Source of the DNA: a virus
Strand: one strand, 5' to 3'
Length of the DNA: 41,904 nucleotides
IMG/VR virus record: IMGVR_UViG_3300045988_046732
The translations under genes and the position numbers were made by a program. Under the pieces are notes generated by a model. The model saw only the letters and a list, made by a program, of their open reading frames with translations, made no database searches and was not told where the DNA came from. Below, in pieces: positions 6,777 through 29,353 of the stretch; position 1 is the first letter of the stretch, and each line of letters opens with the position of its first letter.

Positions 6777-8180
6777 GTGAATATTCGTAGAGCATTAAAG
6801 GATCTCGGGTTTGACACGGTCGACAGCAAATTTTACTCTCTGATCGACCTTTGGAACGCATGGTATAAGGGAAACGTTGAAGATTTCCACAGCTATACGG
6901 TGTGGAATGGCATTGAAGAGTTGGAGTGCCATAGGTATTCGGTGGGAATGGGAAAGAAAGTCTGCGAGGATTGGGCCAACCTCCTAATGAACGAGCGAGT
7001 CAACATCACGCTTGAAGGCAAACAGGAGCAGGAATTTATCGATACTGTTTTTGCCGACAACAACTGGGAGGTCAAGGCTAACGAATCGCAGGAGCGCAAA
7101 GCGGCAGTAGGAACCGTTGCGTATGTGCCGGTGATGGAAGGCATGGGAATTAATCCAGATACGGCAGAGATCGTTGATTCTGGGCGTATTCGCATTAACT
7201 ACGTTAGTGCCGGGAACATCTACCCGCTGACGTGGGATAACGGCGTTATCCGTGAGTGTGCGTTCGCGTCCACCAGAAAGGTCGATGACAAGGAATATAC
7301 TTACATCCAAGTTCACCGGCTTCGTAACGGCGAGTATGACATTGAGAACCACCTGTATGATGCGGAGGAAGTCCCGTTAACCAGCGTAAAGGGGTTTGAC
7401 ACAATTCCTCCGGTAATCCATACCGGCATCGACAAGCCGCAGTTTGTGATCGACCGGCTGAACATTGCAAACTCTGACGAAAATAACCCGCTTGGCGTGG
7501 CTGTTTTTGCCCACGCCATCGACCAGCTCAAGAGCGTTGATATTACCTATGACAGCTATGTGAATGAATTTGTCCTTGGCAAGAAGCGCATTGTGGTACA
7601 GCCGGAGGCCACCAAGAGCATTGACGGTCGACCAGTGTTTGATAAGCGTGAGACCGTTTATTATGTGCTGCCGGAGGACAGAGGCGGAAACGGCAACATC
7701 TTACAGCAGGTCGATATGTCTCTGCGGACGGCGGAGTTTAACACCGGTATGCAAGATATGCTGAACATCCTGTCCAGCAAGTGCGGCTTCGGTGAGAATC
7801 ATTACAAATTTGACCAAGGCAGTATTGCAACGGCCACGCAGGTCATCAGCGAGAACAGCACCCTGTTCCGCACGATCAAAAAACATGAAATTGTGCTTGA
7901 ACGGGCAATCACAGAGTTGTGCCGGAGCTTGCTCCGCATGGGGAATCGATACATGGGCGCATCACTTAATGAGGACGTCCAGATCTCCATTGACTTTGAC
8001 GATTCCATCATTGAGGACAAGGGCCAGGACTTTAACCGTGACGTGCAGCTTCTTAACGCTGGCATCATGAACGATTGGGAGTTCCGTATGCGCTGGATGA
8101 ACGAGGACGAAGCCACCGCAAAGGCAGCACTGCCGAAGGCACAGGATATGGCGGACGAAGCAGAAGAAGAGATTGAGTGA
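6777..8180 (+). CDS. Portal protein (SPP1 gp6-like)
   Basis: 467 aa with a GTG start, located directly after terL. Acidic C-terminus and typical portal size. Confidence 0.85.
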   Translation: MNIRRALKDLGFDTVDSKFYSLIDLWNAWYKGNVEDFHSYTVWNGIEELECHRYSVGMGKKVCEDWANLLMNERVNITLEGKQEQEFIDTVFADNNWEVKANESQERKAAVGTVAYVPVMEGMGINPDTAEIVDSGRIRINYVSAGNIYPLTWDNGVIRECAFASTRKVDDKEYTYIQVHRLRNGEYDIENHLYDAEEVPLTSVKGFDTIPPVIHTGIDKPQFVIDRLNIANSDENNPLGVAVFAHAIDQLKSVDITYDSYVNEFVLGKKRIVVQPEATKSIDGRPVFDKRETVYYVLPEDRGGNGNILQQVDMSLRTAEFNTGMQDMLNILSSKCGFGENHYKFDQGSIATATQVISENSTLFRTIKKHEIVLERAITELCRSLLRMGNRYMGASLNEDVQISIDFDDSIIEDKGQDFNRDVQLLNAGIMNDWEFRMRWMNEDEATAKAALPKAQDMADEAEEEIE

Positions 8181-8191
8181 GGTGACAGCGT

Positions 8192-9925
8192 ATGAGGGCG
8201 TACCCGTTTGACCCATCTACGCTTGATGCGCTCCCAGAGGATCTGGCGGAACTGTTCCGGGCTCTTGAAATCACACTTCTGGAAGGAATTTGCTCTCAGT
8301 TAAAAGAGGCGGATGAGCTGAACGAGGTAACAGTACAGAGCATCCGGGCCTTGCGCTCACACGGGATCAACCTGAAGGAAATCAAGAAAGCAATTTACGA
8401 GACTTCCGGCATCAGTAAAACGAAGCTGGACGAGCTGCTGGGCGATGTGGTCGCAAGGAACCAACAGTATTACACCAATCTGATTGACCTTGCGCATATC
8501 ACACAGCCTGAGACACTGGTTGATGCTGCGGAAGTGGCAGCGATCAGGACGCAAACGCTGGATACATTTCACAATCTCACCGCATCCATGGGCTTCCTTG
8601 TGGACGCTGGGCGTACGATGCTTCCACCTGCAAAAGCGTACCAATGGGCACTTGACAACGCAGCGTTGCAGGTGCAGAGCGGTGCAATTAACTACAATCA
8701 AGCAATTAAAACGGCGGTAAAGGAACTTGCGGACAGCGGTTTGAAAGTGGTTGACTACGAAAGCGGCCATTGGGATCACGTCGATGTTGCCGTGCGAAGA
8801 GCCGTAATGACCGGCGTATCTCAAATCTGCGCCAAGTATACGGAGCAATCCGCAGAATATCTGGATACACCCTATTTTGAGGTCTCTGCTCATATTGGCG
8901 CGAGAGATAAGCCGGGACCGTCACCGTGGTCGAGCCATAAGGATTGGCAAGGCCGTGTTTACAGCGTCCGTGTCGGGGACATTTACCCGAGCATTTATGA
9001 GGTGTGTGGCCTGGGCGCTGTTGATGGTCTGGAGGGAGCTAACTGCCGGCACAGGCGGTTCCCCTGGGTTGAGGGTGTGTCCGAGCGCACCTACACAGAT
9101 GCACAGCTGGAGCACATCGATGATGGGCACGGCTGCACGTTTGACGGCAAGGGTTACACGGCATACGAGGCAACCCAGATGCAACGCCGTATTGAGCGGA
9201 CAATCAGAAAGCTAAAGCGCGAAAAAGCCGCCTACAAGGCCGCAGGATTGCATGAAGATGAGGATGCAGTAAACATACGGCTGCGGCGGTTAAACGCTAA
9301 ATACAAGGCGTTCAGCGCGGAAGCTGGCCTGCCGGAGCAACCGGAGCGGATGCGCGTTTATTTCGAGGATGATGCAACAATCAAAGCGGCAAATTCCATG
9401 AAAACGAAACGGGCAGAAGTGGTAGCAACTTATGCTAAAGACGATAGAGACACTCTTGAGTTTTTCGGCGCAGACGCAAGAGATAACTTGAATTCTATTG
9501 TAAAAAGACGTACAATGAAACTGGAAAATGGCTTTGCCTGCTTCCCAGACGGTGACCCGCTAAACGAAAACGTTAAAAGGGTAAAACCTCTTAAAACGTA
9601 TTTTGATGTTGCTATGCACGGGAGCCAGACGGCAGTTGGATTCGGGTCAGAAGAAACAAATATGTCACCGAGATTGCTTGCGTCTGTAATTCGACATAGT
9701 AATGGATGGAACGGGCAAAAAGTGAGGTTGCTGTCATGCAACACAGGCAAGCGCATTGAAAATGATTATTGCTTTGCAGAGGAACTTGCAAATGCGCTTG
9801 GCGTAAAAGTAAAAGCACCAACCGATGTTCTATACATACCACCTAATGGGGAAATGTATGTGGGGGACACCGGGGAGGGATATTTTGAAACGTATAAGCC
9901 AAACGAAAGGGGGCGGGTAAAATGA
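8192..9925 (+). CDS. MuF/SPP1 gp7-like minor head protein with an extra C-terminal domain (candidate polymorphic toxin or His-Cys peptidase-like module)
   Basis: 577 aa after the portal. The N-terminal ~400 aa are head-morphogenesis-like. The C-terminal ~140 aa are AT-rich and carry VAMHGS...VRLLSCNTGK...FAEELANALGVKVKAPTD. Confidence 0.75.
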   Translation: MRAYPFDPSTLDALPEDLAELFRALEITLLEGICSQLKEADELNEVTVQSIRALRSHGINLKEIKKAIYETSGISKTKLDELLGDVVARNQQYYTNLIDLAHITQPETLVDAAEVAAIRTQTLDTFHNLTASMGFLVDAGRTMLPPAKAYQWALDNAALQVQSGAINYNQAIKTAVKELADSGLKVVDYESGHWDHVDVAVRRAVMTGVSQICAKYTEQSAEYLDTPYFEVSAHIGARDKPGPSPWSSHKDWQGRVYSVRVGDIYPSIYEVCGLGAVDGLEGANCRHRRFPWVEGVSERTYTDAQLEHIDDGHGCTFDGKGYTAYEATQMQRRIERTIRKLKREKAAYKAAGLHEDEDAVNIRLRRLNAKYKAFSAEAGLPEQPERMRVYFEDDATIKAANSMKTKRAEVVATYAKDDRDTLEFFGADARDNLNSIVKRRTMKLENGFACFPDGDPLNENVKRVKPLKTYFDVAMHGSQTAVGFGSEETNMSPRLLASVIRHSNGWNGQKVRLLSCNTGKRIENDYCFAEELANALGVKVKAPTDVLYIPPNGEMYVGDTGEGYFETYKPNERGRVK

Positions 9926-10224
9926 TGCTATTCGGGTATTTTAAAGGCATGAAATATAGCACCCATGCCGATGACTTTGAAAAGTATCGCACGTTTAGAA
10001 ATGCTATCAGCCGAGATAAAATCATTGAACACATAGAATCATTAACCCCAGCTCTTGCGTGTTTTGAAACGTTTGATATTTTTACAGGAGAAAGATTGCG
10101 AGCGGGTCAATACATTGATGGCGATTTCAGATTTCCACTTGATTTTCTGCATTACTACAAGAATTATGATATTGGCATCCCCTATGAGTATGAAGCGTAT
10201 TTGAAAGAAATTGGGGTAGGCTAA
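9922..10224 (+). CDS. Small AT-rich ORF overlapping the MuF stop (candidate immunity protein)
   Basis: ATGA overlap with the upstream gene. 100 aa, with the same low-GC composition as the MuF C-terminal module. Confidence 0.6.
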   Translation: MMLFGYFKGMKYSTHADDFEKYRTFRNAISRDKIIEHIESLTPALACFETFDIFTGERLRAGQYIDGDFRFPLDFLHYYKNYDIGIPYEYEAYLKEIGVG

Positions 10225-10355
10225 TGGATGATAAACTGATGCAGGCCATCGAGGCTATTATCCGGCGCGGTAATGATGCGGAGATCCGACGCAAGGGTGA
10301 CGGTTACATCGTGTTAGAAGTCAAGAAAACAATCAAATATTCAACTCCCTCGTAA
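10224..10355 (+). CDS. Small hypothetical protein (43 aa; absent from the ORF track)
   Basis: TAATG overlap. Hand translation: MDDKLMQAIEAIIRRGNDAEIRRKGDGYIVLEVKKTIKYSTPS. Confidence 0.45.
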   Translation: MDDKLMQAIEAIIRRGNDAEIRRKGDGYIVLEVKKTIKYSTPS

Positions 10356-10378
10356 TTGGGCGCGGGAAAGGGCAATAG

Positions 10379-10421
10379 GAGCCAACTGACTACGATTTGT
10401 AGCCGGTTGGCTCTTTTGTTT
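10379..10421 (+). terminator. Rho-independent terminator
   Basis: Stem gagccaac/gttggctc with an inner ctac/gtag stem, followed by ttttgttt. Confidence 0.7.
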
Positions 10422-10502
10422 CAGGTAAAACCCGCGAGGTACAGCGGTTTTATACAATCTATCGCCGCGACGGACTGCGGACAAGGGAAAGGAAGATAGA
10501 AA

Positions 10503-11096
10503 ATGGCACTTACACGCAAACTTTTAAAGGGCATGGGTCTCACCGACGAACAGGTGGATACCATCATTGAGGCGCATACCGACACCGTGGACGGCCTGAA
10601 GGCTGATATCAGCCGTTACAAGACGGATGCGGAAAAGCTGCCCGGCGTCCAGAAGCAGTTGGACGATCTAAAGGCGGTGGGTGACGGCGGCTATCAGGAT
10701 AAGTACGAGAAGGAGCACAAAGCCTTTGAGGACTTTAAAGCTGGCGTCACGGCAAAGGAAAGCAAGGCGGCAAAGGAAAAGGCCGTTCGTGCTTACTTTG
10801 AAAGCAAAAACATCACCGGCGCAAATCTCGACCTTGCCATGCGTGGCTGCGGCGAGGAAATGGCAGCGTTGGAGCTGGACGGCGAGAAAATCAAGGACAC
10901 CAAAAGCCTTGACGCCCTCGTAGACGGCACCTACAAGGGGCTTGTTTCCAAGCCTGCTATTCGGGTTGATATGGGTGGACGGCTCAATGAAGGCGGGAAA
11001 CCCATGACAAAGGACGAGATCATGCAAATCACAGACAGAGCGGAGCGGCGTGCTGCAATCGCTGCAAATATGGATTTGTTTAGAAAGGAAGAATGA
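10503..11096 (+). CDS. Head scaffolding protein
   Basis: 197-aa charged, helical, K/E/D/A-rich protein directly upstream of and overlapping the capsid gene. Confidence 0.75.
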   Translation: MALTRKLLKGMGLTDEQVDTIIEAHTDTVDGLKADISRYKTDAEKLPGVQKQLDDLKAVGDGGYQDKYEKEHKAFEDFKAGVTAKESKAAKEKAVRAYFESKNITGANLDLAMRGCGEEMAALELDGEKIKDTKSLDALVDGTYKGLVSKPAIRVDMGGRLNEGGKPMTKDEIMQITDRAERRAAIAANMDLFRKEE

Positions 11097-19614: not shown

Positions 19615-20526
19615 ATGGCAATCGCAAGTGTAAAGGCCGTACTTAACGGCCAGACCTACAACCTGACCTACGACGCCGCCAGCGGGACCTACAAGGCCAC
19701 GGTAACGGCTCCGGGGGCAACAAGCTACAACCAGGCTGGCGGTTATTACAACGTATCTGTGACGGCCACCAACGACGCCGGGACCACAGGAACGGCAGAC
19801 GGAGCAACACTGGCGGGCCTGCGGCTGGTGGTACGGGAGCGCGTGGCCCCGGTTATCACCATTTTGTCCCCCTCTGAGGGCGCATACGTCAGCAACAGCA
19901 AGCAGCCGGTGGTTTTTACTGTCACCGACGAGGCGGGCGGCTCCGGCGTGGATCTGACCACGCTGGTGGTCAAGCAGGACGGGACGGCGGTGGCTTCCAA
20001 CACTATCGAAACCACGGCCATCACCAACGGATACAGCGTGACCTACACACCGGCGGCAGCGCTTGGAGACGGCAGCCACACGGTGACGGTGGATATCAAG
20101 GACCACGACGGCAACGCGGCGACCCAGAAGTCCACCACCTACACGGTGGACACGGTGCCCCCGGTGCTTAATGTGACGGCTCCCACGGACAACCTGGTGA
20201 CCAACAAGGCGGCGCTGACTGTGAGCGGCACCACTAACGATGCCACATCCTCCCCCGTCACTGTGACGGTCAGACTTAACGGAACGGACCAGGGCGCGGT
20301 GACTGTGAGCACAGGCGGAGCCTTTACTAAGTCCATCACCCTGGTGGAAGGAAGCAACACCATTGTGGTGACGGCTACGGACGCCGCAGGCAAGAGCTCC
20401 AGCGTGACCCGGACGGTCAAGCTGGACACCAGCGTGCCGGTAATCACTGCCGCCAGCATTACTCCTAACCCGGCTGACGCAGGGGCAACCGTTATCATCT
20501 CCGTTACCATTACGGAGGGCGCATGA
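19615..20526 (+). CDS. Tail fibre/adhesin-like protein with tandem Ig-like domains
   Basis: 303 aa, Thr/Val/Ala-rich, with repeated beta-sandwich-like units (...SHTVTVDIKDHDGNAA..., ...SNTIVVTATDAAGKSS...). Confidence 0.65.
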   Translation: MAIASVKAVLNGQTYNLTYDAASGTYKATVTAPGATSYNQAGGYYNVSVTATNDAGTTGTADGATLAGLRLVVRERVAPVITILSPSEGAYVSNSKQPVVFTVTDEAGGSGVDLTTLVVKQDGTAVASNTIETTAITNGYSVTYTPAAALGDGSHTVTVDIKDHDGNAATQKSTTYTVDTVPPVLNVTAPTDNLVTNKAALTVSGTTNDATSSPVTVTVRLNGTDQGAVTVSTGGAFTKSITLVEGSNTIVVTATDAAGKSSSVTRTVKLDTSVPVITAASITPNPADAGATVIISVTITEGA

Positions 20527-21237: not shown

Positions 21238-21636
21238 TCAGCCAAGGCTCAGGCGGGCGGTGAGACTCTCCTGCAAAAGCTGGGAGCAGTTGATACCCCG
21301 CTTATCCGCAAGGTTAGCCATCCATGCGGGAAGGGAGACGTTTTTCCGGACGGCCCGGGTGTCGGTCATAGCACGGTATGCGATGGTATCCACCCGGATA
21401 AGGGAGAACACCGCACCGTCCTCGTGCTCCAGCTCTGCCTGAGGCGTGGGGGCCGGGATCGGGTCCCCCTCGTCCTCTGCCACCACCAGCCAGCAGGATG
21501 CGGCGTCAGTGATCTGGTCGATGGCGTCCTGGAGATCGTGTCCGGTGGTGATGCACCCGGGCAGATCGGGGACACGGGCATAGTACTTCGTTCCATCCTC
21601 GTTGGGCGTAAACATGGCCGAGTAAATATATTTCAT
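21238..21636 (-). CDS. hicB: HicB-family antitoxin
   Basis: Start MKYIYSAMFTPNEDGTKYYARVPDLPGCITTGHDLQDAIDQITDA (HicB N-terminal fold) with a C-terminal RHH-like VSLPAWMANLADKRGINCSQLLQESL. GGAGGAGG SD. Confidence 0.85.
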   Translation of the reverse strand: MKYIYSAMFTPNEDGTKYYARVPDLPGCITTGHDLQDAIDQITDAASCWLVVAEDEGDPIPAPTPQAELEHEDGAVFSLIRVDTIAYRAMTDTRAVRKNVSLPAWMANLADKRGINCSQLLQESLTARLSLG

Positions 21637-21664: not shown

Positions 21665-21862
21665 TCAGCCCCGCCGCCGCTCGTTCTGCTTGATCTCTTT
21701 CCGGATATACCGCAGGTCGTCCTCGTCAAAGTCGTGGCGTTTCAGCGGTATGCTCGCGCCGGTCTCTTTGTTCCGGTATATGTCATGGTTTGCTCCGTGC
21801 CTTGCAAAGCTGTATCCGCTGTTTTCAAGGTCTTTTGCCGCTTGATCCCGTGGCTTCATCAT
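21665..21862 (-). CDS. hicA: HicA-family mRNA-interferase toxin
   Basis: MMKPRDQAAKDLENSGYSFARHGANHDIYRNKETGASIPLKRH matches the HicA pattern. AGGAGG SD. Confidence 0.85.
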   Translation of the reverse strand: MMKPRDQAAKDLENSGYSFARHGANHDIYRNKETGASIPLKRHDFDEDDLRYIRKEIKQNERRRG

Positions 21863-25815: not shown

Positions 25816-26064
25816 ATGGACACTCAGCACAGGATGTTACGAGAGAATCTATCATCAATGGCCCCACAGCGTGCGATTTCTTATGTTCTGTCCTTCGATC
25901 TTCCTCCGGACGAGACTGCGTGCATCATCGAGTGCGATGTCCGGGGGAAATCCTGCGCGCAGGTAGGCTTTGAACTTAATTTATCGCCGGACACGATCAA
26001 GAAGTATCGCCGCAGGGCATATCATAAAATTGCAGACGGTCAAAGAGAGAGCATCGACTTTTAG
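25816..26064 (+). CDS. Sigma-70 region-4 / LuxR-like HTH small regulator
   Basis: ACIIECDVRGKSCAQVGFELNLSPDTIKKYRRRAYHKIAD resembles a region-4 HTH. The SD is weak. Confidence 0.55.
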   Translation: MDTQHRMLRENLSSMAPQRAISYVLSFDLPPDETACIIECDVRGKSCAQVGFELNLSPDTIKKYRRRAYHKIADGQRESIDF

Positions 26065-26079: not shown

Positions 26080-26159
26080 GCTAGCACTTCCCTTACACTT
26101 TTCGGACGCTTTTAAGCGCCCGTTTTTTTGTATGATAAAAACAGAAAGAAGGTGTGGCG

Positions 26160-26300
26160 ATGTATGAGCGGCTTTTGGCCTGCGGCTATCCAGAAGATAT
26201 GGCTCGGGATATCATCGCACAGCACAGCAATCCAGCAGAATTAGAGCACTACGTTCGCTTTATTGAGTTGCTATACGATGACCGGAGGGAATATGTATAG
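26160..26300 (+). CDS. Small hypothetical protein (46 aa; absent from the ORF track), first gene of the cargo operon
   Basis: GAAGGTG SD. Hand translation: MYERLLACGYPEDMARDIIAQHSNPAELEHYVRFIELLYDDRREYV. Confidence 0.45.
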   Translation: MYERLLACGYPEDMARDIIAQHSNPAELEHYVRFIELLYDDRREYV

Positions 26301-26673
26301 TTTTTTCAACCCCAACCCCTGCGGGAAAAATGCAGGGGACTGCACCGTGCGGGCAATCGTAAAGGCTACGGGGATGGAGTGGGGCGAGATCTATTTAAGA
26401 CTCTGCATCCAAGGGTATCTAGACGGGGATATGCCGTCGGCTAACGCCTGTTGGGGGCGGTATCTCCGCAGCATCGGATACCGGCGGTACATCGTGCCTG
26501 ACACCTGCCCGGACTGCTACACGGTGGGACAATTTGCGGAGGACCACCCGGTAGGCACCTATATTTTAGCCCTGTCCGGCCATGTGGTCTGCGTCCGAGA
26601 CGGCGTGATCTGGGATAGCTGGGACAGCAGCAATGAGAACATATTGTATTACTGGGTCAAGGAGGATAACTAA
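26293..26673 (+). CDS. Conserved mobile-element protein with a papain/transglutaminase-like Cys-His-Asp signature (predicted)
   Basis: GGAGGG SD at ATG 26293. Signature residues lie in NPNPCGKNAGDCTVRAI...LSGHVVCVRDGVIWDSWDS. Confidence 0.55.
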   Translation: MYSFFNPNPCGKNAGDCTVRAIVKATGMEWGEIYLRLCIQGYLDGDMPSANACWGRYLRSIGYRRYIVPDTCPDCYTVGQFAEDHPVGTYILALSGHVVCVRDGVIWDSWDSSNENILYYWVKEDN

Positions 26674-26674
26674 A

Positions 26675-27103
26675 ATGGCGTACACACCTTACGGATGGCA
26701 GAATCCCTATTATGCACAGCCTATGCCGGATAACCTGGCGCAGCTCCGTCAACAGCAGATGCCGCCGATGATGGCACCGCAGACCCCGCAGAATCCGGTG
26801 GCGCAGAGCGGTGTGCAGTGGGTCAGCGGTGAGCAGGAAGCCCGAAACTGGATGATCGCGCCAAATGCCGCCGTGGCGTTGTGGGACAGCTCCGCGCCAA
26901 CGGTGTACCTCAAAAAGGCGGATGCCAGCGGTAAACCGTCGCTTACGATCTATGACCTTGTAGAACGCGCAGAAACGCCCCGTACAGCGCCCACGGCAGA
27001 CCAGGTGAAGTTTGTCACCCGGGAAGAATTTGACGCGCTGGCGGCGGTTGTGGACGGCATAAAGGGCAAAAAGAAGGTGAAGGAGGCTGACGCTGATGGC
27101 TAA
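26675..27103 (+). CDS. Hypothetical protein with a Q/P/M-rich N-terminus
   Basis: AAGGAGG SD. 142 aa. Confidence 0.6.
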   Translation: MAYTPYGWQNPYYAQPMPDNLAQLRQQQMPPMMAPQTPQNPVAQSGVQWVSGEQEARNWMIAPNAAVALWDSSAPTVYLKKADASGKPSLTIYDLVERAETPRTAPTADQVKFVTREEFDALAAVVDGIKGKKKVKEADADG

Positions 27104-27308
27104 CCCCTTTTTTGACGCTTTAGGCGGCGGGAACACGCCGGTAGGCCGGTTCCAACAGATGATGCAGCAGTTCAACCAGTTTCGGGCCTCATTTCAGGGA
27201 GACCCAAAGGCGGAAGTGGAAAAACTTTTGCAGTCCGGAAAAATGAGCCAGCGGCAGTTAAACCAGCTACAAGAAATGGCGAAGCAGTTTCAAGGGTTTA
27301 TAAAGTAA
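27096..27308 (+). CDS. Hypothetical Q-rich small protein
   Basis: GAAGGAGG SD. 70 aa. Confidence 0.55.
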   Translation: MANPFFDALGGGNTPVGRFQQMMQQFNQFRASFQGDPKAEVEKLLQSGKMSQRQLNQLQEMAKQFQGFIK

Positions 27309-27358
27309 TCAACATCGTGGCCACGATTTGATAATAAAAATCTGAAAGGAGTTTTTCT

Positions 27359-28090
27359 ATGTCTCTTTCCTCTGACGGCGCTCCCATGCTGACGATGCCT
27401 GTGGCCCCCACCAACGCTGGCAGCAATGGCGGTTTCGGCTGGGGCGACAACGGCGCTCTGTGGCTCATTGTCCTGTTCCTGTTCATTTTTGCAGGTGGTT
27501 GGGGTAATGGTTTTGGCAACAACGCTGGCAATTCCGGCGGCGTGGTCGACGGCTACGTGCTGACCTCTGATTTCGCTAATGTCGAGCGCAAGATCGAAAG
27601 TGTAAATCAGGGGCTTTGCGATGGATTTTACCAGCAGGCGCAGCTCATCAACAACACCAACATGGCAATGGCAAACGGCTTTGGACAGGCTGAGCTTTCC
27701 CGATCCAACCAGCAGGCCGCCCTGATGCAGCAGCTGAACGCCATGCAGATGCAGGCGGCCAACTGCTGCTGCGAGAACCGGGCCGCCATCGCCCAGGTGC
27801 GTTACGACATGGCGACGCAGGCGTGCGACACCCGGAACACGGTGAACACCGCCGCCCGGGACATCATCGACAACCAGAACCAGAACAGTCGGGCCATCCT
27901 GGACTTCCTGACCCAGAGCAAGCTGCAGGATCTCCAGAGCGAGAACCAGGGGCTGAAGCTGGCGGCGTCTCAGGCCGCCCAGAACAACTACCTGATCTCC
28001 CAGCTGCGGCCCACGCCCATTCCGGCCTATGCCAGCTGCAACCCCTGGGCGGGCGGAAGCTACACGGGATGCGGCACCTGCGGCTGCTGA
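27359..28090 (+). CDS. Membrane-anchored Gly-rich / Q,N-rich / Cys-rich protein of unknown function
   Basis: AAAGGAG SD. Contains GGFGWGDNGALWLIVLFLFIFAGGWGNGFGNN, an internal CCC and a C-terminal YTGCGTCGC. Confidence 0.7.
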   Translation: MSLSSDGAPMLTMPVAPTNAGSNGGFGWGDNGALWLIVLFLFIFAGGWGNGFGNNAGNSGGVVDGYVLTSDFANVERKIESVNQGLCDGFYQQAQLINNTNMAMANGFGQAELSRSNQQAALMQQLNAMQMQAANCCCENRAAIAQVRYDMATQACDTRNTVNTAARDIIDNQNQNSRAILDFLTQSKLQDLQSENQGLKLAASQAAQNNYLISQLRPTPIPAYASCNPWAGGSYTGCGTCGC

Positions 28091-28157
28091 CAACTGCATA
28101 GCATCAGCTGTTCGGGATTTCCGAACTGTTCAGCCCCGTGCTGATACTGGAACCATC

Positions 28158-28189
28158 GCGGCGGGGCAGTAGTCCCGCCGCTTATTTTA
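28158..28189 (+). terminator. Rho-independent terminator / attenuator
   Basis: 8-bp stem gcggcggg/cccgccgc followed by ttatttta. Confidence 0.65.
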
Positions 28190-28205
28190 TGAAAGGACTG
28201 ATTTT

Positions 28206-28628
28206 ATGGCAGAATACACCAACCCAGGAATTTTGACTGTAGCAGCCGGCCAGAACGTGCCCCTGACCTCCGCCGCGGTAAACAGCAAGCCGTGTATCGT
28301 TCACAGGGACGGGGCGGGGATCGTGACCCTGCGGGGGCTGACCAACCAGTGCAAGGCCCGCTTCCGGGTGAGCTTTGGGGGCAACATCGCCGTTCCCACC
28401 GGCGGGACGGTGGAGGCCATCACCGCCGCCCTGGCCATCAACGGGGAGCCGCTGAACAGCGCCACCGCCACTGTGACCCCTGCCGCTGTGGAGAACTACT
28501 TCAACATCTACGTCGGCGCCATTGTGGAGGTTCCCCGGGGCTGCTGCCTGACGGTGGCCATGGAGAACACCAGCACGCAGGCCATCAGTGTGGCAAACGC
28601 CAACATGACCGTGGACCGGATTAGCTGA
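28206..28628 (+). CDS. BclA C-terminal-domain-like (TNF/C1q-like jelly-roll) protein, no collagen region
   Basis: 140 aa. The alternating beta pattern and ending ...AISVANANMTVDRIS resemble exosporium BclA-type C-terminal domains (by eye). Confidence 0.5.
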   Translation: MAEYTNPGILTVAAGQNVPLTSAAVNSKPCIVHRDGAGIVTLRGLTNQCKARFRVSFGGNIAVPTGGTVEAITAALAINGEPLNSATATVTPAAVENYFNIYVGAIVEVPRGCCLTVAMENTSTQAISVANANMTVDRIS

Positions 28629-28642
28629 AAGGAGAATCATTT

Positions 28643-29008
28643 ATGGGTATGAGAACGTTATACAAGCTGAAAGACATGCTTTGTCAGGAGCTGGACGAGA
28701 TCGCCGACAAGGGCGACCTGGGGGCCGGTGATCTGGACATCGCCCACAAGCTGACGGACACAATCAAGAACATCGACAAGATTGAGGCGATGGACGAGCG
28801 GGGCTATTCTGGGCGCTATCTGGATGATGATTTGCGGAGCTACAATCGCGGCAGCTCCTACGCCCGCCGGCACTATGTCCGGGGGCATTACAGCCGCACG
28901 GACGCATCCGAGCATCTGCGTAGCCAGATCAACGATATGATGCGGGAGACCGACGATGACCGCATCAAGGACGCCTTGCGCCGCGCAATGGACATGATGG
29001 AGGACTAA
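28643..29008 (+). CDS. Hypothetical Tyr/Arg/Asp-rich protein
   Basis: AAAGGAG SD. 121 aa, including YSGRYLDDDLRSYNRGSSYARRHYVRGHYSR. Confidence 0.6.
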   Translation: MGMRTLYKLKDMLCQELDEIADKGDLGAGDLDIAHKLTDTIKNIDKIEAMDERGYSGRYLDDDLRSYNRGSSYARRHYVRGHYSRTDASEHLRSQINDMMRETDDDRIKDALRRAMDMMED

Positions 29009-29022
29009 GGGGGTAGGCCCCA

Positions 29023-29322
29023 ATGATTGACGAGCGAGAATTGGCGCTATGGATCAAGCGGTTGGAAACGGAAGAGTCCAGCTGGTCGAACTACGAAAAG
29101 CTGGCGGCGCTGTATACCATCCAAAACCAAAACCGGGAACCGGTGAGAGAAAGCCGCATTGTTGAGGCGTATTCTGCGGCTTCCGCGCCTGACAGTGATT
29201 TCCTCCGGGCTGTGGCAAGCATTGACCCCTCCCGCGCATGGGAGGTTATGGACGAGCTTATGGACAGTTTAAAGGTTGTGAATGAGCGCATTTATAACAA
29301 CGTTATGCGGAAACTCGAATAA
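29023..29322 (+). CDS. Hypothetical protein, last gene of the cargo operon
   Basis: AAGGGGG SD. 99 aa. Confidence 0.6.
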   Translation: MIDERELALWIKRLETEESSWSNYEKLAALYTIQNQNREPVRESRIVEAYSAASAPDSDFLRAVASIDPSRAWEVMDELMDSLKVVNERIYNNVMRKLE

Positions 29323-29323
29323 G

Positions 29324-29353
29324 ACACCCCCCGCCTTTTTAGGTGGGGGGTGT
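29324..29353. terminator. Hairpin between convergent genes (probable bidirectional terminator)
   Basis: 9-bp stem acacccccc/ggggggtgt. There is no clean T tail on either strand. Confidence 0.45.

Follow-up and report, generated by a model that had tools for sequence, protein, structure and literature searches.

The window analysed here is a 41,904-nucleotide stretch of viral DNA (IMG/VR record IMGVR_UViG_3300045988_046732). Positions 26160-29322 hold eight closely packed + strand ORFs (o1 to o8), all at the starts given in a preliminary description of the sequence. A GGAGG, AAGGAG or GAAAGGA motif (SD) lies upstream of every start, and the gaps between ORFs are -8 to +14 nt, with the exception of 50 nt upstream of o5 and 115 nt upstream of o6. 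A holin (Phage_holin_5_2) and an Amidase_3 lysin are encoded upstream, and a large serine recombinase downstream. The eight ORFs make up the larger part of an undescribed accessory cassette that is self-contained, has its own regulator and moves from one Clostridia phage backbone to another. The unit is bigger than first described and runs from a small DNA-binding regulator, through a repeat array and promoter-like site, o1-o5, a structured three-hairpin spacer with a terminator-like stem, and o6-o8, to an end terminator. Its features are listed below; the repeats, the hairpin with the -10-like element and the end terminator were read from the sequence.

25816-26064, +: small regulator, 82 aa, stand-alone sigma-70 region 4 / LuxR (GerE)-type helix-turn-helix protein preceding the cassette
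26084-26113, +: three direct repeats (GCACTT, ACACTTTT, ACGCTTTT), spacing ~11 nt
26103-26141, +: hairpin and T-run, followed directly by a TG-extended -10-like element (TGTATGATAAAA)
26160-26300, +: o1, 46 aa, acidic helical protein, ORF with SD, accessory member
26293-26673, +: o2, 126 aa, papain-like cysteine peptidase candidate (invariant residues, AlphaFold, phrog_3754 at E 4.7e-34)
26675-27103, +: o3, 142 aa, core member (phrog_21718 at E 8e-31)
27096-27308, +: o4, 70 aa, Q/M/F-rich helical protein, core member (phrog_22984 at E 2e-24)
27359-28090, +: o5, 243 aa, putative membrane anchor, core member (phrog_16490 at E 1e-35)
28110-28191, +: three-hairpin element of the o5-o6 spacer (terminator scan, conservation in related spacers)
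28110-28126, +: HP1, part of this element
28130-28144, +: HP2, with GATACTG directly 3'
28158-28181, +: HP3, 10-bp GC-rich stem with a T-run after it, terminator-like
28206-28628, +: o6, 140 aa, predicted stand-alone TNF/C1q-like jelly-roll (AlphaFold, Foldseek, phrog_20016 at E 2.6e-58)
28643-29008, +: o7, 121 aa, core member (alignment, phrog_28802 at E 8e-10)
29023-29322, +: o8, 99 aa, acidic helical protein, accessory member (alignment)
29325-29352, no strand assigned: terminator, hairpin CACCCCCCGCC-TTTTTA-GGTGGGGGGTG between the convergent o8 and integrase genes

Regulatory signals and flanks

The regulator matches Sigma70_r4_2 (E 2.2e-5) and GerE (E 8e-5) slightly under the Pfam cut-offs (24.4 vs 25.7 bits), and 18 homologues give Pfam matches up to E 8.9e-9. 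A PDB profile search retrieved sigma factor region 4, KorA/TrfB and LuxR-type regulators, and from its likeness to KorA the protein could be a repressor instead of an activator. It was detected by tblastn in 69/81 related loci, an incomplete count since several of the diverged 80-88 aa equivalents, seen 5' of o2 in most of 16 loci inspected, had escaped this search. The equivalent is placed between o2 and o3 in a lineage that carries the cassette within its head operon, an RHH protein replaces the regulator in some loci, and none was identified in the cassette of Dulem virus 39.

The direct repeats form a putative binding array for the regulator. In the same place, related loci carry three to four repeats of a lineage-specific motif of ~8 nt (GGCAGTTT, GCCACTTT, GNCCTTT, AGTGACCC, GTGATGCAC/TGAGGCAC, GACAGATT). 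The following hairpin and T-run are terminator-like and may close the regulator gene; the same hairpin/T-run/-10-like layout (TACCATAA, TATGATAA, CATACTGG) stands upstream of the cassette in related loci. We infer a promoter at 26103-26141, where a generic consensus promoter scan called none on the + strand. Sigma-E, K, F or G promoters had been suggested as targets for a search, and the -10-like elements are by eye unlike these consensus sequences. The hairpins between o5 and o6 were found again in nearly all related spacers. HP1 stem sequences vary among loci, one HP2 base pair is GC in 23, AU in 15 and CG in 3 sequences, and the element matches no Rfam family.

With its own regulator, lineage-specific direct repeats and hairpin/T-run elements on both flanks, the cassette appears to be an independent transcription unit. 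At one locus (L108), opposite-strand genes stand between the lysis genes and the cassette. Integrated prophages on contigs of 118-355 kb have host genes directly 3' of o8, and the cassette is therefore the last unit before the attachment junction, as the earlier placement at the prophage end by att and integrase had anticipated.

Distribution of the cassette among phages

More than a thousand phage genomes from gut and rumen carry the cassette. The order o2-o8 is kept in 76-81 of 81 related loci, and the genes are thus co-conserved; a lack of co-conservation had been named beforehand as evidence against a joint system. These loci differ in tail, lysis and integrase genes: none of the 80 IMG/VR loci has a homologue of the window tail genes, integrases are serine or tyrosine enzymes (36% or 66% identical) or absent, and lysins vary too. 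Cassette order is unchanged in uncultured Clostridia genome bins and in a rumen lineage of 495 contigs. It also holds in the head-operon lineage (97 contigs), in which the cassette is found between the Phage_min_cap2 and scaffold/capsid genes in 80/80 contigs and all 78 nearest capsid relatives, a placement that persists where the capsid is 84% identical but o6 only about 42% identical.

In Dulem virus 39, whose capsid and portal are unrelated, o5 and o6 were found by tblastn and ORFs resembling o3, o4 and o7 by eye, beside the integrase in the replication region and far from the structural genes. There is no o2 in this phage, and a small HExxH protein, possibly a peptidase substitution, ends its cassette. 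The core in all lineages is o3, o4, o5, o6 and o7, with the small regulator and a peptidase (in most cases o2) as usual companions, and the cassette is independent of virion type. A reading as sporadic moron cargo does not fit its fixation in whole lineages and its location inside a head-morphogenesis operon in one of them.

The carriers are Clostridia phages. The sole cultured one, Butyrivibrio virus Ceridwen, infects B. fibrisolvens, has no integrase and has only been observed in lytic growth. The capsid-protein type of the window occurs in 123 phage records, including many Streptococcus, Staphylococcus and Enterococcus phages, and a search of the latter for o6 found nothing.

The encoded proteins

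Sequence searches against Pfam, PHROG, NCBIfam and PADLOC matched no ordinary phage, lysis, replication, defence or spore family; the preliminary description had likewise assigned none of the proteins to a phage structural, lysis or replication family. Seven of the eight proteins match PHROG families of unknown function, six of them at E 8e-10 to 2.6e-58; the match of o8 is weak (E 0.005), and o1 has none in PHROG or Pfam. Median dN/dS against homologues, with dS close to saturation, ranges from 0.07 (o6, the most conserved member) to 0.22 (o7) for the regulator and o2-o8, o1 being left out, and all genes tested are under purifying selection. The odd compositions reported for o3, o4, o5 and o7 hold when measured against the large proteins of the same window: o3 is enriched in P (2.8x), Q (2.5x) and M (2.1x), o4 in Q (5.5x), M (3.6x) and F (3.4x), o5 in C, Q and N, and o7 in D, R, M and H.

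By tblastn o1 is present in 24/81 loci, and by eye a small o1-like ORF with an L..G(Y/F)..MA.DI motif lies 5' of o2 in most loci. Alignment of o3 shows a low-complexity N-terminus rich in P, Q and Y, then a conserved domain of ~50 aa, followed by a helix and a tail rich in K and E; the protein has no match in Pfam or PDB. o4 is present in 79/81 loci. o7 consists of a variable Tyr/Ser/Arg/Gly/Asp low-complexity stretch between two helices, and every source-given name among its at least 7946 relatives is 'hypothetical'. o8 occurs in 76/81 loci and has longer variants (165-166 aa) with Pfam DUF7841; searches of the head-operon lineage and of Dulem virus 39 found no homologue.

A papain/transglutaminase-like signature had been noted in o2. 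C17, H97 and D108 are invariant in alignments of 17 and 121 sequences, and an adjacent invariant Asn is N8 in the smaller set and N6 in the larger. In the AlphaFold model (pLDDT 94.4), C17 starts helix 17-26, H97 starts a strand and D108 ends the next strand. This predicted Asn/Cys/His/Asp arrangement supports a papain-like layout without a significant solved-structure match (best PDB fold E 0.5, with faint echoes of Josephin, Tae4 and TssM). A fold search of BFVD gave 21 matches at E<1e-3, almost all uncharacterised phage proteins, and a C39-domain phage protein at E 8e-3. The transglutaminase assignment is not supported, as there is no Pfam match or significant PDB fold and the echoes are those of C39 and Josephin alone.

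A membrane-type hydrophobic segment is present in o5 alone; no hydrophobic or export signal was found in the other cassette proteins. The acidic, K/R-free N-tail of o5, proline-rich at its N-terminus like o3, is followed by a single Gly/Trp-flanked hydrophobic segment (~34-52), an extended helical region rich in Q and N that contains the invariant CCC (C136-138), and a Cys-rich C-terminus with a conserved Cys pair, ending in CGTCGC in the window protein. Hydrophobicity and flanking-charge statistics over 70 homologues revealed K/R after the segment in 31% alone, a weak charge bias. Some integrated copies of o5 are split or truncated. No family was found in PDB, Pfam or NCBIfam, and one of 23 homologues touches ZorA (E 1e-4), probably because of coiled-coil similarity. 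The Q/N-rich region, hydrophobic stretch, CCC and CGTCGC had all been described correctly; the suggested YjcZ likeness is not supported, with TIGR01732 matching 1 of 23 homologues at E 0.06.

The earlier proposal of a BclA-type jelly-roll for o6 is borne out by its AlphaFold model (pLDDT 90.9). The best Foldseek PDB matches are F-BclA CTD (9h38), BxpB (8d02), ExsF (9h3d/7r1m) and BclA (1wck), at TM 0.70-0.77 and E about 1e-6, which supports a predicted TNF-like jelly-roll of the BclA-CTD/ExsF/BxpB type. Relatives fall into 646 clusters at 50% identity; the best 150 of the 646 representatives are all stand-alone proteins of 72-196 aa, with no collagen-like fusions seen. The model also matches TNF ligands and phage fibre knobs with E-values only slightly weaker, and the predicted TNF-like fold alone tells little about o6 function.

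Possible roles and related systems

We tentatively favour, at somewhat less than an even chance, a mobile accessory cassette whose products would assemble, unsecreted and tethered to the membrane, around o5 and an o6 trimer. With o5 alone bearing a hydrophobic segment, the products would not be secreted. The K/R-free acidic N-tail and an occasional Arg just past the segment suggest an N-out/C-in topology for o5, in which the long helical region with its cysteines would lie in the cytoplasm. In this compartment o6, a trimer-type stand-alone ExsF/BxpB-like jelly-roll, would serve as a hub to which partners dock through proline-rich tails, the o3 N-terminus being one, while low-complexity o3, o4 and o7 would supply bulk, papain-like o2 would trim one component, and the cassette's own regulator would provide switching. 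Anchor, hub, bulk and trimming enzyme together would thus make a counterpart of the exosporium's ExsF/BxpB anchoring layer, attached instead to the phage host's cell membrane. The site of action would be the host cell (lysogen or late infected cell) and not the virion, in spore-formers and others. The weak charge bias of o5, the low functional content of a TNF-like fold, the possibility that the regulator represses, and the split or truncated o5 copies count against this explanation.

Remodelling of the spore coat or exosporium, as originally hypothesised, would involve mother-cell expression in a sporulating lysogen, with the Cys-, Tyr- and Gln-rich products and o6 entering the coat or exosporium, o2 cross-linking or processing components, and spore surface properties being altered. 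In favour of this proposal, exosporium proteins head the fold matches of o6. Signal peptides are not required for exosporium assembly in the mother-cell cytoplasm, and the cassette proteins have none; ExsF docks proline-rich N-terminal (leader) peptides of its partners (PMC12357932), and the N-termini of o3 and o5 are proline-rich. A GerE/LuxR-type regulator, the att-proximal position in prophages and the Clostridia phage carriers fit as well. Against it, no sequence-level link of the cassette to any spore protein was found (the Pfam/NCBIfam models searched included BclA_C, exosporium-leader and YjcZ), o6 relatives lack collagen-like fusions among the best 150, the fold is unspecific, and the -10-like elements do not resemble sporulation sigma consensus sequences. 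Both integration sites seen lie outside sporulation genes, one lineage has the cassette in its head operon, and o6 was not found in the collection's deposited Bacillus, Clostridioides and Clostridium phages. Ceridwen carries the cassette without an integrase, and the spore hypothesis is weakened because the host of this sole cultured carrier, Butyrivibrio, is a genus not known to form spores. A spore role is unlikely, and the cassette is probably not spore-specific.

Placement between Phage_min_cap2 and the scaffold would fit a head-associated role too, and counts against the membrane-tethered assembly. A virion function, with o6 trimers as head decoration or as a fibre knob on an o5 shaft, or with internal or ejected proteins matured by o2, would further agree with the 42% identity between the window capsid protein and that of the head-operon lineage, the TNF-like knobs of phage fibres (9k09, 9eul, 8ke9) and the strongest constraint falling on o6. 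We nevertheless consider it quite improbable, given that Dulem virus 39 has the core remote from its structural genes, that the carriers' tail modules are unrelated, that the cassette has its own regulator and terminators and o5 a membrane-type segment, and that most phages of this capsid type lack the cassette. A membrane-associated cassette could also protect the lysogen or infected cell through superinfection exclusion, defence or counter-defence: an att/integrase-side position is typical of such prophage-borne genes, the unit is self-regulated with a membrane-anchored protein, one slot holds different cassette subtypes in closely related phages, a pattern reminiscent of allelic turnover, and peptidases like o2 are common among phages that infect many different hosts. 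This too is quite doubtful, since PADLOC gave no meaningful match (o4 alone against a DRT-associated model, E 0.002), the ZorA contact of o5 probably reflects coiled-coil similarity, no nuclease, ATPase, NTPase or other typical effector is encoded, and o6 is strongly conserved, not diversifying. Linkage with no joint function would suit the turnover of o1, o8, extra ORFs and an HNH endonuclease insertion, but is very improbable in view of the purifying selection and a core order that three lineages retain at protein identities as low as 30-40% and on unrelated backbones.

Among known systems, o6 shares its predicted 10-stranded jelly-roll with ExsF/BxpB (ExsFA) and the BclA C-terminal domain of the Bacillus cereus group exosporium; ExsF/BxpB is likewise stand-alone, about 140-170 aa, and without a signal peptide, and the proline-rich peptides of ExsF partners have a parallel in o3 and o5. 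However, structural alignments give 12-14% identity, no Pfam/NCBIfam model matches, collagen repeats and an exosporium leader are missing, and o6 is phage-encoded and present in a phage whose host is not known to sporulate. By analogy, o5 and o6 could also be likened to a TNF-family ligand (type II membrane protein, stalk, trimeric jelly-roll head) split over two genes, o5 supplying the N-terminal anchor and a long helical stalk with Cys clusters and o6 the head; EDA and 4-1BBL are among the fold matches. The likeness is limited: no fused o5-o6 protein was seen in the best 150 representatives, o6 has no export signal, and o5 would, judging by its charge bias, be oriented the other way round.

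In common with small papain-like (clan CA, C39-like) phage peptidases of PHROG 3754, the candidate peptidase o2 has its catalytic residues in the order Asn...Cys...His...Asp, with the Cys starting a helix and the His placed on a strand, but it differs in having no Pfam family or significant solved-structure match. Stand-alone homologues occur in Tsamsa/Kirov-group Bacillus phages, where some are annotated 'putative peptidase', and in Geobacillus GBK2 and Lak megaphages; in other phages the homologue is found by itself in early regions. The regulator resembles stand-alone sigma-70 region 4/LuxR regulators (GerE, KorA/TrfB) in its Sigma70_r4, Sigma70_r4_2 and GerE model matches, in its profile matches to KorA, sigma and LuxR structures, and in adjoining short direct repeats; its sub-cut-off Pfam score and its substitution by an RHH protein in some loci are differences. 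As a whole, the cassette is comparable to the morons and lysogenic-conversion cassettes that temperate Gram-positive phages carry between lysin and att; examples of morons or conversion genes are HK97 gp15 and the toxin genes found in prophages of streptococci and staphylococci. The cassette likewise comes last before attR and lies on the late strand, with promoter- and terminator-like flanks, its own regulator and exchange between unrelated backbones, but it comprises seven to nine genes and not one or two, is lineage-fixed and not sporadic, and also occurs within a head operon and in an integrase-less phage.

Genomic setting and layout of the cassette

The window looks like the full genome (∼42 kb) of a temperate siphophage. 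Its genes run from terminase, SPP1-type portal, Phage_min_cap2, scaffold and capsid protein through the tail genes to a Phage_holin_5_2 holin and an Amidase_3 lysin. Eight plus-strand ORFs (o1 to o8) follow, and then a convergent large serine recombinase with a repressor region. A preliminary description had located the eight ORFs between the lysis genes and attP/integrase; this is right, since host genes start immediately after o8 in integrated prophages on contigs of 118-355 kb. The ORFs were confirmed at the coordinates listed here, each with a Shine-Dalgarno motif, and are spaced by -8 to +14 nt, except that 50 nt precede o5 and 115 nt precede o6. PHROG families of unknown function are matched by seven of the eight (o8 weakly), with o1 unmatched, and dN/dS values against homologues are 0.07-0.22 for the regulator and o2 to o8. 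By sequence criteria, the eight ORFs are real genes. The features of the cassette are as follows.

25816-26064, regulator gene, 82 aa
26084-26113, three direct repeats with ∼11 nt spacing, between the regulator gene and o1
26084-26141 region, hairpin with a T-run, then a TG-extended -10-like element, between the regulator gene and o1
26160-26300 (+), o1
26293-26673 (+), o2
26675-27103 (+), o3
27096-27308 (+), o4
27359-28090 (+), o5
28110-28191, three-hairpin element within the 115-nt o5-o6 spacer, also present in the spacers of related loci L001-L098 and L100
28206-28628 (+), o6
28643-29008 (+), o7
29023-29322 (+), o8
29325-29352, GC-rich hairpin ending the cassette

Two further features were observed amid the late genes of the window. 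A HicB-like antitoxin (21238-21636, minus strand, Pfam E 3.6e-14) lies beside a HicA-like toxin (21665-21859, minus strand, E 1.3e-3), in a slot that is filled by different plus-strand genes in the near-identical phages L104-L106. The 303-aa late protein encoded at 19615-20526 carries the Ig-like domains Big_7, Big_13 and Glucodextran_B; it is shared by only a few of the related phages and probably represents an adhesin module of the tail or a fibre.

Conservation and mobility across phage lineages

An IMG/VR scan with o6 returned 584 relatives, and two further scans with divergent o6 proteins returned 97 (the Dulem virus 35 lineage) and 495 (a rumen lineage). Detailed comparison covered 81 loci, namely the 80 best IMG/VR loci and Dulem virus 33. 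The genes had been taken for a single operon, and co-conservation and synteny across genomes bear this out: in 76-81 of the 81 loci, o2 to o8 are present and follow one another as in the window. For the 80 IMG/VR loci, the 8 kb preceding the cassette contain no detectable homologue of the window tape-measure and tail proteins, and matches to the window lysin in related loci are rare and partial. Some loci have a serine recombinase as integrase, at 66% identity or, in a more distant form, at 36%; others have a tyrosine integrase or none. Opposite-strand genes separate the cassette from the lysis genes in one related locus (L108). The same picture is found in species-representative genomes of uncultured Oscillospiraceae and Clostridia bins, and the hosts are uncultured Clostridia plus one cultured species, Butyrivibrio fibrisolvens.

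The rumen lineage includes the cultured Butyrivibrio virus Ceridwen and has the order regulator, o2 to o8 within unrelated flanks. The order in the Dulem virus 35 lineage is Phage_min_cap2, o2, regulator, o3-o7, Zn-ribbon, scaffold and capsid protein, in 80 of 80 contigs. All 78 of the nearest capsid-protein relatives carry the cassette in this head-operon slot, as two divergent subtypes. Relatives with 84% identical capsid proteins are ∼42% identical in o6 and ∼35% in o5, so the slot has stayed fixed while cassette subtypes were swapped in it. The 60-kb genome of Dulem virus 39 (PP511791) encodes another capsid and portal; there, o5 and o6 (by tblastn) and o3-, o4- and o7-like ORFs (by eye) adjoin an integrase in the replication region. 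From the comparison of lineages, Dulem virus 39 included, it follows that the core is o3-o7, usually with a peptidase and the regulator, and that o1 and o8 are accessory. The genes thus move and are inherited as one unit that has a regulator gene of its own and is independent of tail, lysis and integrase type and, as Dulem virus 39 demonstrates, of capsid type.

In the window, the stretch between Phage_min_cap2 (8192-9925) and scaffold (10503-11096) holds just a 100-aa ORF and ∼280 nt of spacer (9922-10502); the equivalent slot holds the whole cassette in the Dulem-35-like lineage, and the capsid proteins are 42% identical. A strict functional link to the SPP1-like head module, prompted by this identity, was rejected because the capsid and portal of Dulem virus 39 differ and most phages of this capsid type are without the cassette. 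Additional genes occur within some copies: an annotated endonuclease gene, opposite in strand to the cassette, between o4 and o5 in Dulem virus 33 (L001, 8168-8719, minus strand), a 279-aa ORF between o5 and o6 in L351, and, in Ceridwen, an ORF of 264 aa that weakly matches HTH_17 and separates o6 from o7. Of the two integration junctions seen, one adjoins an ABC transporter and the other a PCC/FtsK locus, and integration into sporulation genes was rejected on this ground.

Putative regulatory elements and predicted proteins

The regulator is a stand-alone sigma-70 region 4 / LuxR (GerE)-type helix-turn-helix protein with profile similarity to KorA, and belongs to the corresponding HTH models. 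Among 18 homologues, Sigma70_r4 is matched by 11 and Sigma70_r4_2 by 9 (best E 8.9e-9); the window protein, at 24.4 bits, falls just short of the Pfam cut-off of 25.7, and its PDB profile matches are sigma region 4, KorA and LuxR regulators. By tblastn it is present beside the cassette in 69 of the 81 loci. Most of the remaining inspected loci have a diverged protein of 80-88 aa with the same build in the same place, and an RHH protein replaces it in a few.

The layout of repeats, hairpin and -10-like element recurs in related loci (upstream of o2 in L002-L098). The arrays comprise 3-4 direct repeats of lineage-specific sequence: GGCAGTTT, GCCACTTT, GNCCTTT, AGTGACCC, GTGATGCAC/TGAGGCAC and GACAGATT. 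These motifs appear to differ between loci with differing upstream regulators, and we infer a putative dedicated regulator-operator pair, which could act by activation or by repression. As judged from sequence, the cassette is flanked by terminator-like hairpins and preceded by the -10-like element with upstream repeats. By eye, the -10-like motifs do not fit the consensus of sigma-E, K, F or G, and sporulation-sigma promoters were rejected for this reason.

Each hairpin of the o5-o6 spacer has a distinct pattern of conservation. The first (HP1) is found in nearly all related spacers, with stem sequences unrelated between loci. The second (HP2) and the GATACTG that follows it are nearly invariant, and a single HP2 pair covaries (GC in 23, AU in 15 and CG in 3 sequences). 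The third (HP3) resembles a terminator, with a GC-rich stem of 10 bp and in most cases a T-run after it. Because HP3 has no T-run in Dulem virus 35 (L100), simple termination may be an incomplete explanation of the role of the spacer. The element matches no Rfam family and is absent from Ceridwen; in ∼10 loci, an extra ORF of ∼68 aa lies between HP3 and o6. A small ORF within the spacer was rejected, its start codon not being conserved, as was antiterminator pairing of HP2 with the 5' arm of HP3, which by eye lacks covariation in divergent loci.

Pfam, NCBIfam, PADLOC and PHROG scans of the nine proteins gave unknown-function PHROGs and sub-threshold noise, which upholds the earlier statement that the eight fall into no recognisable phage structural, lysis or replication family. 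With PADLOC-DB v2, o4 hit a DRT-associated model at E 0.0019 and the other eight proteins hit nothing; none is a defence-system component by this measure. Every named protein among public exact or near-exact copies is called ‘hypothetical’, and no account of the cassette turned up in the literature under DUF7841, BclA with prophage or TNF-like with phage.

The most conserved member is o6, with 81-88% identity where other members show 53-77%, and a dN/dS of 0.07. Its AlphaFold model is all-beta (pLDDT 90.9, pTM 0.84) and has the predicted form of a ten-stranded TNF/C1q-type jelly roll. Foldseek against the PDB returned 9h38, 8d02, 9h3d, 7r1m and 1wck (E 5e-7 to 5e-6, probability 1.0, TM 0.65-0.77). 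The F-BclA head, BxpB, ExsF/ExsFA and the BclA C-terminal domain rank at the top, followed by TNF ligands (EDA, 4-1BBL) and then by phage fibre or spike knobs. The ranking vindicates, at the level of fold, the guess that o6 resembles the BclA C-terminal domain; membership does not extend to sequence, as no Pfam or NCBIfam match to BclA_C or equivalent models was obtained at E≤1. In Bacillus, the exosporium nap is anchored via a fold of this type.

The small Cys/His/Asp signature of o2 had been read as papain- or transglutaminase-like, and the papain-like half of this reading is tenable. C17, H97 and D108 are invariant in alignments of 17 and 121 sequences, with an upstream Asn (N8 in the former, N6 in the latter), giving the papain-like residue order Gln/Asn, Cys, His, Asp/Asn at the sequence level. 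In the model (pLDDT 94.4) the Cys sits at the N-terminal end of a helix, His and Asp occupy two strands next to each other, and the predicted helix 17-26 and strands 97-102 and 105-108 fit a papain-like layout. The label ‘papain-like’ is reasonable. No Transglut_core or related Pfam model is matched, and no transglutaminase is among the fold matches in the PDB or in predicted viral structures. The searches of Pfam, NCBIfam and PDB sequence profiles gave no match, and that of solved structures no significant one (best PDB Foldseek E 0.5; Josephin-2 TM 0.37). Among predicted viral structures, o2 groups with uncharacterised phage proteins of many hosts, with weak echoes at E 8e-3 (a phage protein with a C39 domain) and E 0.13 (a Josephin protein). 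Stand-alone homologues occur in Bacillus, Geobacillus and Lak phages; those of Geobacillus GBK2 and Bacillus phage Kirov have early-region neighbours that are uninformative. Dulem virus 39 lacks o2, and its cassette ends with a 105-aa HExxH protein (L349, 14241-14558) that weakly matches Peptidase_M78 and DUF6782. This protein may be a non-orthologous peptidase replacement, and the apparent substitution of a metallopeptidase-like protein for o2 hints that some peptidase is needed.

The only one of the eight proteins with a hydrophobic segment is o5. It has an acidic N-tail without K/R, a single short hydrophobic segment with Gly and Trp at its flanks, a long helical Q/N-rich region, an invariant CCC and a Cys-rich C-terminus. 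The proposed likeness to YjcZ sporulation peptides did not survive: window o5 leaves TIGR01732 unmatched (E≤1), and the family model takes its name from tiny transmembrane peptides, whereas o5 has 243 aa. The YjcZ match of one of 23 homologues (E 0.063) was set aside as coiled-coil/composition noise, as was the ZorA match of one of 23 (E 1e-4); NCBIfam scans of all members and the PDB sequence profile search yielded nothing for o5. Some integrated prophages on long bacterial contigs have a split o5 (L357, 8679-9410, 48 + 185 aa) or a truncated one (L358, 9120-9410, 96 aa) with the other cassette genes intact, which could be decay or assembly error. The odd amino-acid compositions had been described correctly. 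Short helical/beta modules are joined to a P/Q/Y-rich low-complexity stretch in o3, to a Q/M-rich stretch in o4 and to a Y/S/R/G/D-rich low-complexity stretch in o7. For o3, the PDB sequence profile search and Pfam scans of all alignment members gave nothing. The small, acidic, helical o8 contains DUF7841 in longer variants.

Possible roles of the cassette

We tentatively lean towards an assembly directed at the host cell, although this reading falls short of probable. The products would assemble at the cytoplasmic side of the membrane; the cassette proteins have no export signals besides the o5 anchor. The tether would be o5, in a topology suggested by charge bias alone. ExsF clamps proline-rich leader peptides (PMC12357932), and by analogy an o6 trimer might serve as docking hub. 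The low-complexity proteins would form the matrix, with o2 as candidate maturation peptidase.

The preliminary description had placed the products on the spore surface. This would explain the lack of signal peptides, but the cultured host, Butyrivibrio fibrisolvens, is a non-spore-former and the head-operon placement conflicts with such a role; we regard it as unlikely. That same placement favours a virion role for the proteins, against which stand Dulem virus 39 and the dedicated regulator; we hold this to be quite improbable. Exclusion or defence would fit the location and the subtype turnover, yet the cassette is without the usual enzymatic effectors, and we hold this reading to be equally improbable.

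The observation holds up and has more substance than the window alone could reveal: the cassette is widespread, conserved and undescribed. Of the conserved blocks without assigned function in phages that infect human-gut and rumen Clostridia, it is one of the more widespread. The searches with o6, o2 and o7 matched at least about 7,800-8,000 protein clusters each, and its function, once worked out, would annotate thousands of phage genes. It could also bring to light a novel means by which temperate phages alter gut Firmicutes that are abundant but poorly cultured. Because Ceridwen and B. fibrisolvens DSM 3071 form a cultured phage-host pair, the question is directly testable.

It is conceivable, though unlikely, that phages of gut and rumen Clostridia carry a kit of five to seven small, regulator-controlled proteins which, without being secreted, build themselves into a cross-linkable layer resembling an exosporium, anchored by o5 and an ExsF-like TNF-fold trimer and reaching the spore in spore-forming hosts. 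If so, a layer on the spore would alter the transmission or persistence of gut commensals, and the phage could use it to travel with, or be protected in, dormant cells. There is a small chance that the cassette installs such a layer and is in that sense a genuinely new kind of system.

We class the cassette, as a working assignment, as a phage accessory or moron-type cassette. A typical moron is present in some close relatives and absent from others, whereas all 78 nearest capsid relatives in the head-operon lineage carry this cassette; it resembles a moron in moving between unrelated backbones. Compared with exosporium proteins, o6 shows a structural-alignment identity of 12-14% to BclA, ExsF and BxpB, and at 140 aa without repeats it lacks the exosporium leader and collagen-like GXY repeats of BclA. 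Among the best 150 of 646 o6 representatives, sizes range over 72-196 aa and no fused o5-o6 or collagen-o6 proteins occur. The o6 family is a stand-alone domain of ∼140 aa, and is therefore nearer to ExsF/BxpB than to collagen-tailed BclA.
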